From Acutalibacteraceae bacterium (GTDB taxonomy: Bacteria; Bacillota; Clostridia; Oscillospirales; Acutalibacteraceae): a stretch of 53,219 nt of DNA. The position numbers and the translations under genes are program-made. The DNA lies in contig JAZNRX010000227.1 of NCBI GenBank assembly GCA_045590915.1, positions 1 to 53,219 on the forward strand. Reading direction: 5' to 3'. Position 1 is the stretch's first letter; every line of letters begins with the position of its first letter. The notes beneath the pieces were generated by a model. The model ran no database searches, was not told where the DNA came from, and saw nothing but the letters and a program-made list of their open reading frames with translations. Of the stretch, positions 7,392-53,219 are shown one piece after another.

Positions 7392-7411
7392 AAAAACCAC
7401 CCTTTATATGA

Positions 7412-7612
7412 GGTCGGAGTTCGGAAGTCGGAAGTAGGAGACCGAAAAACTGAACTTACCGCCATATTTTAACAAACAAAGCAAAACGAAGTTTTGCAAA
7501 ACAAGCCGTTTACGGCTTCCTTAACATTTGACAAAGTCAAATATATCACTCGTTTCAAAAAAAACGAATAACACTGCCCGCAAGGGCAATATCACTTGCA
7601 CCGACGGTGCAA
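7412..7612 (-). repeat. Composite intergenic repeat, copy A (degenerate heptad block plus six-hairpin array), reverse orientation
   Basis: Heptads are TCGGAGT TCGGAAG TCGGAAG TAGGAGA (7414-7441). Hairpins lie at 7481-7497, 7503-7518, 7527-7541, 7551-7566, 7575-7588 and 7596-7612. They are separated by TATATCACT / AATAACAC / ATATCAC, the reverse complement of GTGATAT. Confidence 0.75.
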
Positions 7613-7628
7613 ATAAAACTGTTTTTTT

Positions 7629-7873
7629 AAAAAAACAAAGAGCTTCATCCCGAAAAAACAGGATGAAGCTGATGCTCCACGGTTCCACCCGTATTGACAG
7701 ATTTACTGCCCTCTCGAAAGTCTTTAACGGGACTTATGCGGCTGACCTTATTTCAGTCGGCACTCGGGAGTGGTAGCCAATGAAAACCAACAAATAAACC
7801 GCTTTCAGCAAGCACGGTTCTCTCTGAAAAATGCCTGTTTTCAGCCTCTCCGTCAACACTTTATAATATTAAC
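7629..7873 (-). promoter_or_regulatory. T-box riboswitch leader (Thr) of thrS
   Basis: The minus strand reads AATACGGGTGGAACCGTGG (T-box sequence, + coordinates 7677-7695). Next comes the terminator AGCTTCATCC ... GGATGAAGCT (7641-7670) and a T-run. The candidate specifier is ACC, in GGCTACCACTCC (+ coordinates about 7772-7774). Confidence 0.8.
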
Positions 7874-9764: not shown

Positions 9765-9787
9765 CAACTAAATCAACCCTTTCGGCT

Positions 9788-9943
9788 GGGTGAAATATTG
9801 CTTCGCAATGTGAAATACGAGCAATGCTCGTGTAAAATCGCTGCGGCGGTGGGTGGATTTAATTTCATATTTTGCTGTAGCAAAATATTTCACCAAAGGT
9901 GCAAACCTTTGATTTCACCGTGAGCGTAAGCGAACGATTTCAC
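9788..9943. repeat. Hairpin-array repeat, copy C (GTGAAAT word, convergent halves)
   Basis: The left half has GTGAAAT at 9790 and 9810 and GTAAAAT at 9832. The right half has AATTTCAT at 9861 and ATTTCAC at 9887, 9912 and 9937. Hairpins lie at 9797-9809, 9817-9831, 9839-9848, 9869-9886, 9894-9911 and 9919-9936. Confidence 0.75.
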
Positions 9944-10077
9944 TTAAAAATGTAGTGGTTCAAACCCATAACTCAAAATTTTAAAGGGCATCGAATTTGT
10001 GCTAAGAAATTTAGCAAATCCGTCATTTTATGCAAAAAACTGAGGTATTTTTCTATTTTCTGACACTTCTCTGCGTA

Positions 10078-21615: not shown

Positions 21616-22539
21616 TTAGTAAACGAAGTTATAGAACTTGCAGTAGTTCCACATATGACCGGACTTGTTTTCAATCTTACCAACGATAAGCTTTGCATAA
21701 CCGATAATAATATCAACATCAGCTGTGTGGTCGATGGAAACGAACTGTCCGTCGGGAGTCATAACAGCTTCAATCTTATAGCCCTTGTAGATAACATGAA
21801 TGTCACTGAAATCTGTGAGAACCTTGTTAACAGTGCTGTCATTTCTGAGTGTATTTTCAATATCTTCCCAGTAAAGAAGAGCACCTGTAACCTGTCCAAG
21901 AACGGAGCCTTCCTTCTTGGGTGTGTCTTCATCCTGCATGATGATTGTGATTTTGTAGTTTGAGCCGTCAGCTACGCATGTTGCAGACTTAACTTTGGAA
22001 AGGTCTGTAAGTGTCCATGCTGCAATTCTTCTCATTGCATCCTCTGAGCCCTTTTCGTTAACCTGCTCTGAAGCCTGATCTTCTGTTGTCATGAAGTTAC
22101 CGAGAACACTTGTAACGATGTTGTTGATTGTTGAACCGCCGACATTAACAGCGTCAACATTCTGCCATTCCTTCTTTGTGTAACCAACCTTGCCTGCCTT
22201 GATGTCATCTACACCCTTCTTGTAGAAAGCTGTGATTTCAGCAGTTGTAGCGGGCATCTTGTTGCCTGCGGGAGCAGCAGTTGTTGCTTCACCTGAGGGA
22301 GCAGCTGTTGTTGTCTCTGTTGAGGGAGTCTGCTGAGGAGCAGCTGTTGTCTGCTCGGGAGCGGGTGTCTGTGTCTGAGCACCTGTCGAAACCTGACCGC
22401 CTACAAGACCGCTGATGTCGATGTCGTTACCGTCTTTGTCAACAAAGCGAACGTGAATTTCCTGTGTGCAAGAAGCAAAAGCAAAAAGCATGCTTGCAAC
22501 AAGAGCAAGAGCAATTACTCTGAAAACATTTTTCTTCAT
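21616..22539 (-). CDS. Lipoprotein of unknown function (paralogue 1)
   Basis: Lipobox FASC, a T/A/P-rich linker, and a roughly 200-aa domain ending ...KFYNFVY. Shares blocks with the 22696..23601 product. Confidence 0.7.
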   Translation of the reverse strand: MKKNVFRVIALALVASMLFAFASCTQEIHVRFVDKDGNDIDISGLVGGQVSTGAQTQTPAPEQTTAAPQQTPSTETTTAAPSGEATTAAPAGNKMPATTAEITAFYKKGVDDIKAGKVGYTKKEWQNVDAVNVGGSTINNIVTSVLGNFMTTEDQASEQVNEKGSEDAMRRIAAWTLTDLSKVKSATCVADGSNYKITIIMQDEDTPKKEGSVLGQVTGALLYWEDIENTLRNDSTVNKVLTDFSDIHVIYKGYKIEAVMTPDGQFVSIDHTADVDIIIGYAKLIVGKIENKSGHMWNYCKFYNFVY

Positions 22540-27692: not shown

Positions 27693-28517
27693 ATGTATAA
27701 AAAAATTTATCTTGAAATCACCAATGTATGCAATCTCAGTTGCACCTTCTGTCACAAAACCTCACGAAAGAAAAGATTTATTACAGAAGAAGAATTCATA
27801 TATCTTCTGAAAAAAATAAGACCTCATACGGACTATCTCTATTTTCATCTTATGGGTGAGCCTCTTTTGCACCCGAATTTCAGCAAGCTTCTTTCGGTTG
27901 CCGCAGAATTTGGCTTCAGAAACACCGTCGCAACCAACGGTTTACTTATAAAAGAAAGGGAGAAGGAGCTTCTGGAGACTCCGCCGTATAAGGTGACCTT
28001 TTCCCTTCACGCATACGAGGGTAACGAAATGCCCGTAAGCCTTCGGGAGTATCTCGATAATATAATTATCTTCTGTAAAAAGGCTGAAAAAAAGGGCACA
28101 ATATGTGTGCTTCGTCTGTGGAACGAGGGCGGAGAAAACACACTCAACACCCGGATAATCGAAAGACTGAAAGAGGAATTCACTTTCAGGGAAAACAGAA
28201 AGGGCTTCACTCTTTCAGAAAAAATATATCTTGAAAGTGCCGAAAAATTCATCTGGCCCGACAAAAGTGCACCCGAGCAGGAGGTTCACTTCTGTATGGG
28301 ACTTCGTGACCACATAGGAATTCTCTGTGACGGCACGGTGGTTCCCTGCTGTCTCGATGCCGACGGGGCATTGGCACTGGGAAATCTTTTCAAAGAGGAC
28401 CTAACCGATATAATAAACAAACCCTCTGCAAGAGCGATATATGACGGTTTCACTCAAAAAAATGCCACCGCCAATCTCTGCAAGCACTGCCAATACGCCA
28501 CAAGGTTTAACTCATAA
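27693..28517 (+). CDS. Radical SAM / SPASM-domain protein
   Basis: CxxxCxxC in ITNVCNLSCTFCH. The C-terminus is Cys-rich (HFCMG..ILCDGTVVPCCLD...CKHCQY). Confidence 0.8.
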   Translation: MYKKIYLEITNVCNLSCTFCHKTSRKKRFITEEEFIYLLKKIRPHTDYLYFHLMGEPLLHPNFSKLLSVAAEFGFRNTVATNGLLIKEREKELLETPPYKVTFSLHAYEGNEMPVSLREYLDNIIIFCKKAEKKGTICVLRLWNEGGENTLNTRIIERLKEEFTFRENRKGFTLSEKIYLESAEKFIWPDKSAPEQEVHFCMGLRDHIGILCDGTVVPCCLDADGALALGNLFKEDLTDIINKPSARAIYDGFTQKNATANLCKHCQYATRFNS

Positions 28518-28546
28518 TTTAAAGGAGTACCGTTAAATTATGAGTT
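28509..28546 (+). other. 13-bp perfect inverted repeat spanning the stop codon of the radical SAM gene
   Basis: AACTCATAATTTA (28509-28521) pairs with TAAATTATGAGTT (28534-28546), with a 12-nt loop AAGGAGTACCGT. No T-run follows. Confidence 0.6.
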
Positions 28547-28780
28547 AATGATATTTCTGCTTCGCAGAAGTGATATTGCCCTTCGGGCAGTGCATTATGA
28601 GCAACACGAATAACAAGGTTGTGACGGAGTCAGGTACTTATATTCTTTGCTATGCAAAGAGTGATATATTTTCCTGCGGAAAATGTGAAGCATTTGCATC
28701 GAACTTTCTCCGACTTCCGACCTTGCAAAGCACTGTTTTCTCCGAATTCCGAAATCCGAAATCCGAATTTGCAAAGCACT
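28547..28780 (+). repeat. Composite intergenic repeat, copy D (hairpin array plus two heptad blocks), forward orientation
   Basis: AATGATAT, GTGATAT, AGTGATATA and TGTGAAG alternate with hairpins at 28555-28569, 28577-28589, 28645-28659 and 28669-28683. Next come TCTCCGACTTCCGACC (28707-28722) and TCTCCGAATTCCGAAATCCGAAATCCGAATT (28739-28769). Each block is followed by TTGCAAAGCACT. Confidence 0.75.
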
Positions 28781-33596: not shown

Positions 33597-34105
33597 AATT
33601 CGGAATTCGGAATTCGGAGGTTAATTAAACTTTTACTTCCCCCAAAATCTAAATCTATTTCCGCCCGTTTGTGCTTTCATTTTTTGTTCAGTTTATTTTT
33701 CTGAGTTTTGGTTATAGCAACAAGCATTTTTATTAACTCGTCACAATCCTTATAAATGCTGTCAAACTGTTCCTTTGTTATGTACTCACTTTCATACAAC
33801 AATTCCAACCAATAAGCACTTTCATCTGCTTCTTTCAACGAAACAGTAAGCTTCATATAAAAATCTGCATCAGTCTGAACCCTTGTACTTTCCCGGATAT
33901 TAGCACCAATACTTGTCCCCGAATGCAACAGCTGATTTGAAAGCACAAACTCCTTCTTTTCCGAGCACAGATATTTATTCAGCTTTATAATTCGCAAAGC
34001 AAAAGCCTTTGACTTATCACAAAGAATATTACACCTCAAAATATTCTCCTTCTAAACAGCTATAGCCGCTATTCATATTGTATCTTTTTCTCCGAAATCC
34101 GAATT
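33597..34105. mobile_element. 509-bp cassette bounded by inverted heptad blocks, carrying the four-helix-bundle gene (candidate non-autonomous element)
   Basis: The left end is AATTCGG x3 plus AGG (33597-33620). The right end is TCTCCGAAATCCGAATT (34089-34105). The innermost 17 nt match as inverted repeats at 15 of 17 positions. The cassette fills the whole intergenic gap and abuts the stop codon of the M42 peptidase gene. Confidence 0.55.
33677..34039 (-). CDS. Four-helix-bundle protein (23S rRNA intervening-sequence protein / Avd-like family)
   Basis: 120 aa: ...SNQLLHSGTSIGANIRES ... EADESAYWLELL, characteristic of this family. TTG start with AGGAG 6 nt upstream. AT-rich relative to the flanks. 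Confidence 0.75.
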   Translation of the reverse strand: MRCNILCDKSKAFALRIIKLNKYLCSEKKEFVLSNQLLHSGTSIGANIRESTRVQTDADFYMKLTVSLKEADESAYWLELLYESEYITKEQFDSIYKDCDELIKMLVAITKTQKNKLNKK

Positions 34106-35143
34106 TCAGATTGCGAAACCTGTGAGCAATCTGATTGTGTTTTCGACTCCGTCGATGTGGCTTCTTTCATAGCCGTGGGAGGAATATACGCCGGGACCTA
34201 TGAGTCCGTGGCGGAAATCATGTCCGGCACGAAGAGTGGCCTCTGCATCGCTTCCGTAATGAGGATAAATGTCAACTGCATAAGCTGCACCGGTTTTTTC
34301 CGCAGCCTCAATAAGCCTTGATGTCATATCATAGTTATATGGGCCTCCGGAATCCTTGGCACATATCGAAACCTGCTTTTCGGTGCAGATAAGTCCGTCT
34401 CCGACACAGCCCATATCAACGGAAAGCACTTCCGTTATCCCCTCAAAGGGAACTGCGGCAGCTCCGTGCCCGACTTCTTCATAAACCGTTATATGCAGAT
34501 ATATCTTTCTTTCGGGTGAAAGCTTTTCATCCTTCAGAAGCTTCGCAAAGCCTAAAATTGCCGCAACACTCAGCTTATCATCAAGAAAACGGCTTTTTAT
34601 ATAACCCGATTCCGTAACGACAGTTCTCGTATCAAAGGCAACAATATCGCCGTTTCCGATACCGAGTGCTTTCACATCATCCGCATTTTTCACATCCTCG
34701 TCAAGCACAACCTCCATATTATCAAAGCTGCGGTCGGTTTTGTTAAATTCGCCGTTGACATGGATTGAGGGATTTTTGAGAAGAAATGTGCCGTCATATA
34801 TACCGTTTTTTCTTGTTATGACACGGCAGTTTTCGCCCTCTGTATTAAAGCCGTTAAGTCCGCCGAGAGGTGTGATTCTCAGTCTGCCGTTACTCTTAAC
34901 CTCGGCAACCATTCCGCCGAGTGTATCAAGATGTGCTTCCAGAAGGAGTGCATTTTTTTCATCTTTTCCGCCGATTTCCACGGCAACTCCGCCTTTTTCA
35001 GTGATAAAAGCGGGACAGCCGACAGAAATAAACTCATTTCTGACAAATTCCGCCGCCGCTGAAGTGTATCCCGTCGGGGAATCGATCTTTAATATTTCAA
35101 CTGCTTTCTGAGTTGCAAATTCTGCATACTTTTTATACATCAT
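34106..35143 (-). CDS. M42-family metallo-aminopeptidase (FrvX/CelM-like)
   Basis: 345 aa with metal-ligand segments EAHLDTLG, FLDDKLSVA, YEEVGHGAA and SVDMG. Confidence 0.8.
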   Translation of the reverse strand: MMYKKYAEFATQKAVEILKIDSPTGYTSAAAEFVRNEFISVGCPAFITEKGGVAVEIGGKDEKNALLLEAHLDTLGGMVAEVKSNGRLRITPLGGLNGFNTEGENCRVITRKNGIYDGTFLLKNPSIHVNGEFNKTDRSFDNMEVVLDEDVKNADDVKALGIGNGDIVAFDTRTVVTESGYIKSRFLDDKLSVAAILGFAKLLKDEKLSPERKIYLHITVYEEVGHGAAAVPFEGITEVLSVDMGCVGDGLICTEKQVSICAKDSGGPYNYDMTSRLIEAAEKTGAAYAVDIYPHYGSDAEATLRAGHDFRHGLIGPGVYSSHGYERSHIDGVENTIRLLTGFAI

Positions 35144-42850: not shown

Positions 42851-42989
42851 AATTCGGAATTCGGAATTCGGATTTCGGAGAAACAATCAGCTTCAGTTTG
42901 TACTTCAAACTATTTAATTATTTATCATTAACAAAACACGACACTTAAAGTTTTCATATCTCCGAATTCCGAACTCCGAATTCCGAATT
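42851..42989. mobile_element. 139-bp MITE-like element with 31-nt heptad-repeat terminal inverted repeats, between nadB and nadC
   Basis: The left arm is AATTCGGAATTCGGAATTCGGATTTCGGAGA (42851-42881). The right arm is TCTCCGAATTCCGAACTCCGAATTCCGAATT (42959-42989). The arms are complementary at 29 of 31 positions and enclose a 77-bp AT-rich core. Confidence 0.7.
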
Positions 42990-51666: not shown

Positions 51667-52233
51667 TCAGCTCAATGTGTCCGTAAAGCAGGCTGTCCAC
51701 TGTGATACGTCATTGTCATAGTAAAGCTTTACATAATGGAAGCCGTTTTTATCCTTGAGTGTGATTAAATAGCTGAAGCTTGGATCAGGCACGGGTACCA
51801 CCCACTTGCATTTCAGCTCACCTGAAAAAACGCCCGTTTTGTTATTGTCTGCAAGGATTTCACCGTTTTCGGAATAAAGAGTACCCCAGCTTGTGAAAAC
51901 CTCTGTCTCGGTTCTGAGATTGATTGTCAGGTCACACATAATTTCATTGCCAAGTCTTGCAAGCATCAGTGACTCGGACTGTGCCTGTGTGATGTGAACC
52001 TCTTCGGTAAGCCTTTCGGCACCCACATACACCTCGGGAGTCTTATCCGAATTCATAAAGAAAAATCCCGCAACAAGAATGACAGCGATTGCCGCGGCAA
52101 GTGAGCCTATTCTTCTGAACTGAACAAGCTTTCCGCTTTTTACTTCTGTTTCGTCGGCGTTCACTATTCTGTCATAAAGTTCTTCGGGTGCTTTTATATT
52201 CAGATATTCTTCTCTGAACCTACTGTCAGACAT
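51667..52233 (-). CDS. Putative anti-sigma factor (single-pass membrane protein)
   Basis: The start ATG (52233) overlaps the sigma-factor stop (ATGTCTGA). It has a short cytoplasmic N-terminus, one TM helix (SLAAAIAVILVAGFFF) and an extracytoplasmic domain. Confidence 0.6.
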   Translation of the reverse strand: MSDSRFREEYLNIKAPEELYDRIVNADETEVKSGKLVQFRRIGSLAAAIAVILVAGFFFMNSDKTPEVYVGAERLTEEVHITQAQSESLMLARLGNEIMCDLTINLRTETEVFTSWGTLYSENGEILADNNKTGVFSGELKCKWVVPVPDPSFSYLITLKDKNGFHYVKLYYDNDVSQWTACFTDTLS

Positions 52234-52786
52234 TGAACTCCTCCTTTTCCAAAAGTAATTTAAGTGCATCTCTGCCTCTGGATAATCTCATTTTCACTGC
52301 AGAGGCTGAAATTTTCAGCGACCTTGCAATACTGTCAATGCTCATATCCTCGAGGTAGTGAAGAACAATAACGGTTCTGATTTTCTCGGGAAGCTTTTCT
52401 ATCTCATCAAGAATTCCCGTGCTGTCATCAGAAAAATGATCTCTGTAAACAAGCTTTTCGGCAGTCGAAATATCCTCATGGGAGCGAATGGCATTCTTAC
52501 GGTAAATATCGTGACACTGATTGACTGTTGCCCGTATAAACCAAGCCTTTTCGTGCTCGTCAGATAAGAATATTGTTTTTTTCTTTATATATTTCAGAAA
52601 CACATCCTGAACGGCATCCATCGCATCATCGGGATTACGAAGCTGCATCAGAGCAATTCTGTAAAGCATATCCGAATAGCGTAAATAAACCGCAGATATA
52701 TCAGTTTCCGCCTTTGAAGACCAACCCAACTGACTGCCTCCTATCTGTAATACGTTTGAGAAAACAAAAAAGTCACACAAAGTCAA
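52226..52786 (-). CDS. ECF-type sigma-70 family RNA polymerase sigma factor
   Basis: Region 2 is DAMDAVQDVFLKY..WFIRATVNQCHD. The region 4 HTH is MSIDSIARSLKISASAVKMRLSRGR. The likely true start is TTG at 52729, with AGGAGG 7 nt upstream, rather than ATG at 52786. Confidence 0.8.
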   Translation of the reverse strand: MTLCDFFVFSNVLQIGGSQLGWSSKAETDISAVYLRYSDMLYRIALMQLRNPDDAMDAVQDVFLKYIKKKTIFLSDEHEKAWFIRATVNQCHDIYRKNAIRSHEDISTAEKLVYRDHFSDDSTGILDEIEKLPEKIRTVIVLHYLEDMSIDSIARSLKISASAVKMRLSRGRDALKLLLEKEEFNV

Positions 52787-52809
52787 AAAAAATTCTGATT
52801 TTTTTTGAC

Positions 52810-53018
52810 AATGATATTCATAGCTTCGCTATGAGTGAAATTCATTCCTACGGAATGAGTGAAATTCTTTGCAATACAAAGAATGATATATTTTCCTGAG
52901 GAAAATATGAAGGAAGGCGTAAACGCCTTGTTCCGCTCCGCTCTAAAACACTCGTACCTTCGTTACATTGCTGAAATTTGATTGCATTTGTGTAGACCTG
53001 TCTCCGAATTCCGAATTC
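52810..53018 (+). repeat. Composite intergenic repeat, copy F (five exactly 24-nt-phased word-plus-hairpin units, then a heptad block), forward orientation
   Basis: Units start at 52810, 52834, 52858, 52882 and 52906. The words are AATGATATT, AGTGAAATT, AGTGAAATT, AATGATATA and TATGAAGG. Hairpins lie at 52819-52833, 52843-52857, 52867-52881, 52891-52905 and 52914-52929. The heptad block is TCTCCGAATTCCGAATTC (53001-53018). Confidence 0.8.
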
Positions 53019-53028
53019 AACAATGCCT

Positions 53029-53219
53029 CTACATTTCAAGTATCTTCCCTATAGATCCGTTGTCGTTTATTATTTCGGAGAAAAATTCATGTGCCCATAC
53101 ATTATGCCTTATTCCCTGCTTTTTGTCAAAGGCAAAATATATTCTGCCGTTCACTGCAAGCTTGACGGCAACGAAGAAGGATGTGAAGAAGTCCTTTTTC
53201 ATTGTAAATGGAATCTCGA
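53029..53219 (-). CDS. 3' end of an unidentified gene. The frame is open to the right window edge; an internal ATG at 53202 has no SD.
   Basis: ...EIPFTMKKDFFTSFFVAVKLAVNGRIYFAFDKKQGIRHNVWAHEFFSEIINDNGSIGKILEM, then stop. Not in the ORF track. Confidence 0.3.
   Translation of the reverse strand, partial: EIPFTMKKDFFTSFFVAVKLAVNGRIYFAFDKKQGIRHNVWAHEFFSEIINDNGSIGKILEM

Follow-up and report, generated by a model that had tools for sequence, protein, structure and literature searches.

The window, by which we mean the whole stretch of 53,219 nt analysed here, carries near its end an ECF sigma factor gene (positions 52226-52729, minus strand) that starts with TTG, codes for a protein of 167 aa and matches the Pfam families Sigma70_r2 and r4_2. 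Its upstream neighbour, gene X, lies on the same strand and reaches into the window with its 3' end (53029-53219, minus strand), as shown by the gene call on contig L333 (260 aa) and an alignment at 97%. This contig, which belongs to the same species (97% identity), covers the entire intergenic region, and the model of the sigma gene is identical on L001 and L333. A hairpin array, called copy F, had been placed by the preliminary description between an upstream gene and the sigma gene; this placement is correct, and both genes are on the minus strand. We also considered copy F as the 5' leader of a plus-strand ORF starting at 53089, and rejected this possibility since L333 has the 260-aa minus-strand gene.

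On the sigma side of the array we found a putative ECF-type promoter of the sigma operon (52748-52779, minus strand; TGTGAC ... AAACGTATTA), which is conserved in L335, L336 and L337, and downstream of it the RBS AGGAGG (52737-52742, minus strand). In four species (the window and L335-L339) a motif TGTGAC(C/T)...AAACGT(A/T)TTA stands upstream of the sigma RBS and is probably an autoregulated ECF promoter. An exact-protein look-up of the long anti-sigma ORF and of the 57-aa ORF gave no match.

Anatomy and folding of copy F

Read directly from the sequence, copy F (52810-52929) consists of five units of 24 nt each, just as had been claimed. Each unit is made of a word of 8-9 nt ((A/T)(A/G)TGA(A/T)...) followed by a palindrome of 5-6 bp. 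The units are AATGATATT with CATAG-cttcg-CTATG (unit 1, from 52810), AGTGAAATT with CATTC-ctacg-GAATG (unit 2, from 52834), AGTGAAATT with CTTTG-caata-CAAAG (unit 3, from 52858), AATGATATA with TTTTCC-tga-GGAAAA (unit 4, from 52882) and TATGAAGG with AAGGCG-taaa-CGCCTT (unit 5, from 52906), the 9-nt word being identical in units 2 and 3. When the region was folded, the words were found to pair in large part, giving stems of 8-10 bp with 2-3 unpaired bases (GAA or GAU) between them; each hairpin is closed by an A-U pair, next to it by U.G or U-A, and by one further pair. What had been described as constant linkers are thus, in the fold, largely the closing base pairs of the hairpins. The folded hairpins extend from 52815 to 52837 (hp1), 52840 to 52860 (hp2), 52864 to 52884 (hp3), 52887 to 52909 (hp4) and 52914 to 52929 (hp5). 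A sixth one, hp0 (52782-52809), stands immediately before unit 1, which it abuts; by sequence and fold it is an A/T-only palindrome, GTCAAAAAAAA-ttctga-TTTTTTTTGAC. On the other side, hp5 is followed by a fast-evolving spacer (52930-53000) and then by tandem heptads (53001-53018; TCCGAAT, about 2.3 copies), which were detected by TRF and as the repeat families D2/D3; no strand is assigned to hp0, spacer or heptads. An inverted repeat (52973-52993 against 52775-52795, 76% complementary) encloses copy F.

The RNA fold of copy F has a z-score of -7.7 on the plus strand and -7.3 on the minus strand, with energies of -52.7 and -49.1 kcal/mol, respectively, and folding both strands as DNA gave z-scores of -8.7 and -9.7. 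Our array detector is a simple search for chains of word, hairpin and word. We counted five linker-hairpin-linker chains in the window, compared with 0.13 per dinucleotide shuffle, and the dinucleotide shuffles never produced a four-linker chain. As a negative control, we searched unrelated Firmicutes contigs of gut and termite origin, 387 kb in all, and obtained 0 arrays; this set was made of contigs from a metagenome scan with the sigma protein, which hold only paralogues of it (identity at most 47%). TRF did not call the copy F region a tandem repeat, because the stems differ.

Copy F belongs to the Rfam family Gut-1

With cmscan, copy F matched the Gut-1 RNA (RF01706) at 52809-52894 on the plus strand with 51.3 bits (E = 2.8e-7 over the whole window), and it therefore reaches the curated gathering score of 50 bits. 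The match spans three hairpins joined by (A/G)UGA(A/U)AU, and in the alignment to the model the words of copy F read AUGAUAU, GUGAAAU, GUGAAAU and AUGAUAU. Gut-1 was described by Weinberg et al. 2010 from 43 examples, found in human gut metagenomes only, and its consensus is made of three hairpins with variable stems joined by GUGAAAU (PMC2864571). In Table 1 of that paper the motif is marked 'Y' for RNA and 'n' for cis-regulatory, with the rating of a certain RNA and a likely noncoding RNA, and no function was assigned to it (PMC2864571). Rfam gives its type as sRNA, and a literature search on the accession RF01706 found this paper as the sole one citing it (PMC2864571).

Alignment and fold of copy F give three hairpins at the GUGAAAU spacing, closed by A-U and U.G pairs that come from the linkers; the stems vary while the pairing is kept, as seen in pair counts from 44 arrays and checked on an unselected sample (see below). 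Copy F is a member of an already catalogued repeat family, Gut-1 (RF01706). The 'CRISPR-inverted logic' of the preliminary description is accordingly not a new one, since copy F scores as a known Rfam family. It resembles the family in its short variable-stem hairpins joined by GUGAAAU and in passing the gathering score. It differs from the model by two extra units, the leading A/T hairpin, the spacer and the heptad repeats, and two of its words are of the AUGAUAU variant. There is also a difference in kind: Gut-1 was published as a candidate sRNA, whereas the present data describe a multi-copy repeat without orientation preference.

Strain and species comparison of the sigma locus

When the window was compared with L333, neither the stems (0/54) nor the words (0/44) differed, while differences were found in the loops (3/22), in the spacer (7/71) and in the sigma gene (3/504). 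By hypergeometric estimates, the chance that all three changes in the array fall in loops is about 0.005, and for the seven non-loop changes the chance that every one hits the spacer, leaving stems and words untouched, is about 0.002. The stems and heptamers of copy F are thus under constraint between strains. The heptad run has 2 copies in the window and 4 in L333 (793-825), with an indel of 14 nt.

Orthologous sigma loci were available from three other species, L335 and L336 at 75% protein identity and L337-339 at 69%. These loci keep an hp0-like palindrome of an A-run and a T-run, the promoter motif and the RBS; in contrast, we found no hairpin array and no heptads at any of these loci. Since the array is absent while hp0 and the promoter are kept, copy F would be a lineage-specific insertion, placed in the window's lineage beside a pre-existing A/T hairpin upstream of the putative ECF promoter. 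The upstream gene differs between species at this locus, so that the 'insertion' coincides with a synteny break. The three related species whose sigma loci have no array make the proposed regulatory tie between array and sigma gene unlikely. Nor is the array to be counted as a conserved element of the control region of that gene; the likely ECF promoter sits between the two. In its Rfam orientation, copy F is antisense to both flanking genes.

Other Gut-1 arrays in the window

The 53-kb window contains five Gut-1 arrays, copy F included, in both orientations and with stems that differ from one to the other. Two of them, at 9765-9843 (plus strand, 64.0 bits) and 9857-9945 (minus strand, 40.0 bits), form a convergent pair (9765-9945, no strand assigned) that begins straight after a terminator. 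The pair is homologous to the pairs that follow tRNA genes in L110, L097, L038, L112, L111 and L030. Identity with post-tRNA pairs of other species is as high as 88%, and the flanks give no nucleotide alignment. A long-range inverted repeat of 10-11 nt, for example AAATCCACCC...GGGTGGATTT, was observed around the short-period array of such pairs.

The match at 7538-7621 (minus strand, 46.4 bits) is part of an extended copy (7405-7621, minus strand) with five hairpins, a spacer and (TCCGAMT)3, located between a T-box terminator and the start codon of thrS, the latter gene being identified by its Pfam ThrRS match. From this position it follows that the repeat is tolerated in a 5' UTR, in the Rfam orientation. 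In this region (7405-7865, minus strand), the T-box leader upstream of thrS scored 63 bits, which is below the gathering score of 93. The remaining match, at 28530-28601 (plus strand, 37.3 bits), falls in copy D (28505-28769, plus strand), which has hp0, hairpin units and heptads and lies between convergent genes. The recurrence of copy F units in copy D was confirmed, with 90% identity over 49 nt between 28642-28690 and 52864-52912.

Alignment of copies F, D and 7621-7405 revealed a common heptad architecture. The order in this extended form is hp0, three to four hairpins, a word (GTGAAGG, GTTAAGG or TATGAAGG) with hp5, the spacer and the tandem heptads, and the same form was found in L005, L006, L047, L068, L072 and L034. 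Elsewhere in the window, tandem repeats with periods of 27 and 39 nt were observed at 22265-22371, within an ORF (21616-22539) that has no Pfam match.

The Gut-1 family across genomes

We sampled the family by a linker-pattern scan with one genome per species, covering at least 120 stretches. Among the matches listed, hairpin arrays were present in 69 of 120 stretches; the carriers, again among the matches listed, were nearly all gut MAGs of Clostridia, Eubacteriales, Oscillospiraceae, Acutalibacteraceae, Ruminococcaceae and Christensenellaceae, and a few Akkermansia contigs in the same set also had arrays. The family form is an array in which the heptamer GTGAAAT (variants GTGATAT and ATGATAT) frames short palindromes that are nearly perfect. 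As seen by the detector, arrays reach at most four words and three hairpins, most of them having 3-4 units, and the commonest stem length is 7. The shortest period is 18 nt and the longest 28 nt, the modes being 20 and 24-25, and the 24 nt of copy F are accounted for by a word of 7 nt, two arms of 7 bp and the 3-nt loop between them. The 24-nt phase stressed in the preliminary description is therefore exact in copy F and in a strain of the same species (L333/L334), but it does not hold across the family: this register is local to copy F and is not a family trait.

In 44 arrays, whose rows were picked by the hairpin detector and whose pair counts were taken from hairpins 1 and 2 only, 99.5% of the cells were paired at 14 pairs. 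Each of the 10 variable stem positions showed all four Watson-Crick pair types, and G-U pairs were absent from these positions in the 44 arrays. In a sample drawn without hairpin selection, 193 of 280 linker-to-linker segments had 5/5 anchored Watson-Crick pairs. These counts bear out the view that the pairing is kept while the stem sequence is free.

Crude ORF calls place 86 of 102 arrays between genes. The same calls give no preferred orientation with respect to the upstream gene (same strand 46, opposite strand 44), and on the downstream side the counts are 38 versus 30. Neighbouring array pairs are convergent in about 17 cases and divergent in 2. Arrays nearly always begin immediately after a hairpin; often this is a rho-independent terminator that belongs to a tRNA gene, and the tRNAs concerned vary. 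Near-identical copies were found at multiple loci in the MAG JAZTZP01 and in L047, and long-range inverted repeats surround copy F, the array of L100 and the short-period arrays of pairs.

Many arrays sit at contig ends, and the Logan contig of the copy F locus terminates within the array. L047 and L100, in which the same array is found at both ends, were considered as small circular elements; this was rejected as their genes are ordinary chromosomal ones, and their ends are assembly breaks bounded by repeats. A pattern scan of viral contigs (120 stretches) gave about 8 true Gut-1 arrays, the remainder having no array or simple tandem repeats. BLAST searches with the pair element against plasmids and with copy F against phages gave no match.

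Strand, RNA and DNA

On the Rfam strand, the closing position is U.G in 292 cases, U-A in 22 and C-G in 3, against 5 that do not pair, and this conserved closing pair favours the Rfam strand. Other features point in a different direction. In a wobble-pair strand test, single mismatches on the Rfam strand were A.C in 13 cases and G.T in 1 in a first, narrower sample, and 13 against 4 in a wider one, in which several cases are boundary artefacts. The loops on the GTGAAAT strand show, at all loci L002-L121, a strong bias to TTC, TGC, TAC, TTGC and TTAC. Read on the opposite strand, the same loops are GAA, GCA, GTA, GCAA and GTAA, closed by C-G; GNA and GNRA loops are types known for very stable hairpins. 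The GNA/GNRA loops, the missing G-U pairs and the excess of A.C would speak for the strand opposite to that of Rfam or for a constraint at the DNA level, and the evidence on the strand is therefore mixed. When the minus strand of copy F was scanned for terminators, hp5 alone matched the pattern, the other hairpins preceding AAUUUCACU or AAUAUCAUU, which are poor in U.

Heptad runs and four-helix-bundle genes

In the window, (TCCGAAT)n heptads are found on the three extended Gut-1 copies, in a gene-less inverted pair at 42851-42989 and on the flanks of a gene for a four-helix-bundle protein (33677-34039, minus strand; TIGR02436/PF05635). The heptads around this gene, (AATTCGG)3 at 33597-33619 and CTCCGAAATCCGAAT at 34090-34112, are inverted and 83% complementary. 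Homologues of the protein with 65-84% identity occur in Clostridia, Spirochaetales, Synergistaceae and in one helicase-methylase operon, and all of them are bounded by inverted (AATTCGG)n/(CCGAATT)n heptads; the segment 33597-34112 looks like a cassette shared across phyla. The gene-less pair consists of (AATTCGG)4 and (TCCGAAT)4 around some 80 nt; its fold has a stem of about 30 bp, with an energy of -50.9 kcal/mol and a z-score of -8.75. The pair may represent the cassette in miniature.

Ten four-helix-bundle genes were counted in the Gut-1 loci and the window, and eight of them adjoin GTGAAAT arrays or pure GTGAAAT heptad runs. In L007, L037, L107, L048 and L024 the gene lies less than 50 nt from a Gut-1 array pair. 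In L020, L026 and L089 it stands beside pure (GTGAAAT)n or (ATTTCAC ATCTCAC)n runs, and in L089 heptads and hairpins are mixed. One of these genes comes from a Chlorobi MAG.

A heptamer periodicity is also known from the cyanobacterial STRR heptanucleotide repeats and from the 23S rRNA intervening-sequence/four-helix-bundle cassettes, whose inverted terminal repeats are able to form a long stem around the PF05635 gene. The likeness extends to GTGAAAT, which occurs as a pure tandem heptad in some of our loci; the repeats of these known systems are plain tandem ones with no palindrome between the heptamers, unlike Gut-1. In the literature searched, we found no description of a link between them and Gut-1.

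Comparison with known repeat systems

The REP/BIME elements of enterobacteria are clusters of extragenic palindromes with short conserved motifs between them, often located after genes; they occur in many copies per genome, and both orientations are found within one cluster. Gut-1 resembles them by its clusters of palindromes, its short constant motifs, its sites after genes and its occurrence in both orientations. In the window it has five arrays in 53 kb, and contig breaks were observed at copies. REP stems follow a genome-wide consensus, and their GTAG head is recognised by RAYT transposases. In Gut-1, by contrast, the stems are almost free in sequence and the heptamer alone is constant; the stems differ among the five arrays of the window, near-identical copies being found in some MAGs only. 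Of 20 window proteins compared with Pfam and NCBIfam, none is a transposase. The BOX elements of Streptococcus pneumoniae are modular intergenic repeats as well, whose internal units vary in number and which are predicted to fold strongly, and their modules are conserved in sequence. The design of a heptamer plus a free palindrome is found in Gut-1 and not in BOX.

With CRISPR arrays, copy F has in common the regular alternation of constant and variable segments, but nothing further in the way of a CRISPR array: a CRISPR repeat measures 23 nt or more whereas the constant word of copy F has 7-9 nt, and CRISPR spacers are non-palindromic whereas the variable part of copy F is a self-complementary hairpin of 13-18 nt. 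The scan of the same 20 window proteins against Pfam and NCBIfam gave no cas genes. CRISPR-like and type III antitoxin-like readings were both rejected on anatomy. As regards MITEs, the inverted repeat that encloses copy F is 76% complementary, and no clear duplication or empty site was found.

Discussion

Copy F is best explained, with a probability that we put at roughly 55%, as a six-hairpin member of Gut-1, the family itself being a dispersed, probably mobile extragenic repeat of the REP/BIME kind and not a single-copy gene. The heptamer together with a row of hairpins in a single strand, be it DNA or RNA, would be the feature recognised for copying or maintenance. Such a recognition would explain why the structure and the frame are kept while the stem sequence is free. 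A mobile repeat also accounts for the lack of orientation preference and the sites beside existing hairpins, and for the assembly breaks and the lineage-specific presence. Several points stand against this explanation. We found neither a mobilising enzyme nor a target-site duplication nor a clean empty site, the stems differ among the copies of one genome, unlike those of classical REPs or of fresh transposition copies, and Weinberg et al. 2010 gave Gut-1 the rating of a certain RNA that is likely to be noncoding (PMC2864571).

That rating, with 'Y' for RNA and 'n' for cis-regulatory (PMC2864571), and the Rfam type sRNA are the starting point for regarding Gut-1 as a gene for a trans-acting small RNA. 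In that case 52809-52930 would be transcribed independently from the plus strand, its three to five GAA-linked hairpins serving to bind a protein or a target. The conserved A-U and U.G closing pairs, which exist on the Rfam strand only, agree with this, as does the slightly more stable plus-strand fold, and GUGAAAU could pair with itself (G.U, U-A, G.A, A.A, A.G, A-U, U.G). We nevertheless hold an sRNA gene to be improbable: five arrays per 53 kb in both orientations, most copies starting straight after a terminator, a Rfam strand antisense to both neighbours of copy F, and orthologous loci that do without the array are not what such a gene would lead one to expect. The stems moreover lack G-U pairs at all of their 10 variable positions, and inspection of upstream flanks brought out no promoter-like motif that the copies have in common. 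A cis-acting role, in which the array would serve the ECF sigma operon as its leader or as a control element upstream of it, has the position of the array in its favour, 80-200 nt ahead of the sigma start codon and along the same axis of transcription. It is very improbable, given that three orthologous loci keep the promoter-like motif and the RBS with no array, that this motif stands between array and gene, and that elements of this type also stand in the thrS leader, behind tRNA genes and at the 3' ends of genes that converge. As for chance, or a simple tandem repeat of no structural meaning, the 9-nt word shared by units 2 and 3 and the AT-rich local sequence might suggest it. The probability we allow it is negligible in view of the shuffles (0.13 chains against 5), of stems that differ and that TRF does not report as a tandem repeat, of the Rfam match, and of the conservation of stems and linkers between strains.

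Another possibility is that the hairpin arrays and tandem heptamers are the nucleic-acid partner, as binding platform or cassette ends, of the Avd-like four-helix-bundle proteins of TIGR02436/PF05635, a family that resembles the DGR protein Avd (PMC10053308). The neighbourhood of eight of the ten genes to GTGAAAT arrays or heptad runs, the inverted heptads around the window gene and all of its 65-84% homologues, and the presence of the same heptads on all three extended Gut-1 copies of the window all point towards such a partnership. On the other hand, some 62 of 70 array loci have no four-helix-bundle gene nearby, the loci were chosen by the GTGAAAT pattern and form a biased sample, and in L007, L037, L107, L048 and L024 no matching second array follows the gene; we regard the partnership as a speculative proposal. 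In a broader and equally tentative form, the Gut-1 arrays, the heptamer runs ((TCCGAAT)n and (GTGAAAT)n) and the Avd-like PF05635/TIGR02436 genes could make up one modular, mobile system with a 7-nt frame. The cassette with the gene, bounded by inverted heptamer arrays, would then have non-autonomous relatives in the hairpin arrays and the gene-less inverted heptad pairs, or these would serve the pentameric protein as a platform for binding.

If copy F is, as we favour, a member of a dispersed mobile repeat, it may still act locally. Read-through from gene X would yield six consecutive stable hairpins of the minus strand and then a U-rich stretch, all of it ahead of the sigma promoter. The likely effect would be that such read-through is kept out of the sigma operon and that the gene X mRNA is protected at its 3' end. 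Against an effect as terminator or insulator, the heptamer makes a poor U-tract on the transcribed strand (AUUUCAC or AUAUCAU). A role of copy F as a regulator dedicated to the sigma gene is unlikely.

Altogether, the observation is real and well above chance, and the preliminary description was right in part on the structure and wrong on the phase, the novelty and the tie to the sigma gene. Taken alone, copy F is one more instance of an Rfam family that has been without a function since 2010. The family as a whole is to be re-read as a multi-copy, orientation-free repeat that, in gut Oscillospirales and related Clostridia, is associated with terminators and tRNA genes. Its stems and heptamers are constrained between strains, and at least one of its copies is apparently a lineage-specific insertion. 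In practice, Gut-1 arrays break the short-read assemblies of gut MAGs. If the link between heptamer arrays and Avd-like proteins is true, it would provide a testable handle, and a function, for an RNA motif and a protein family that are both orphans.
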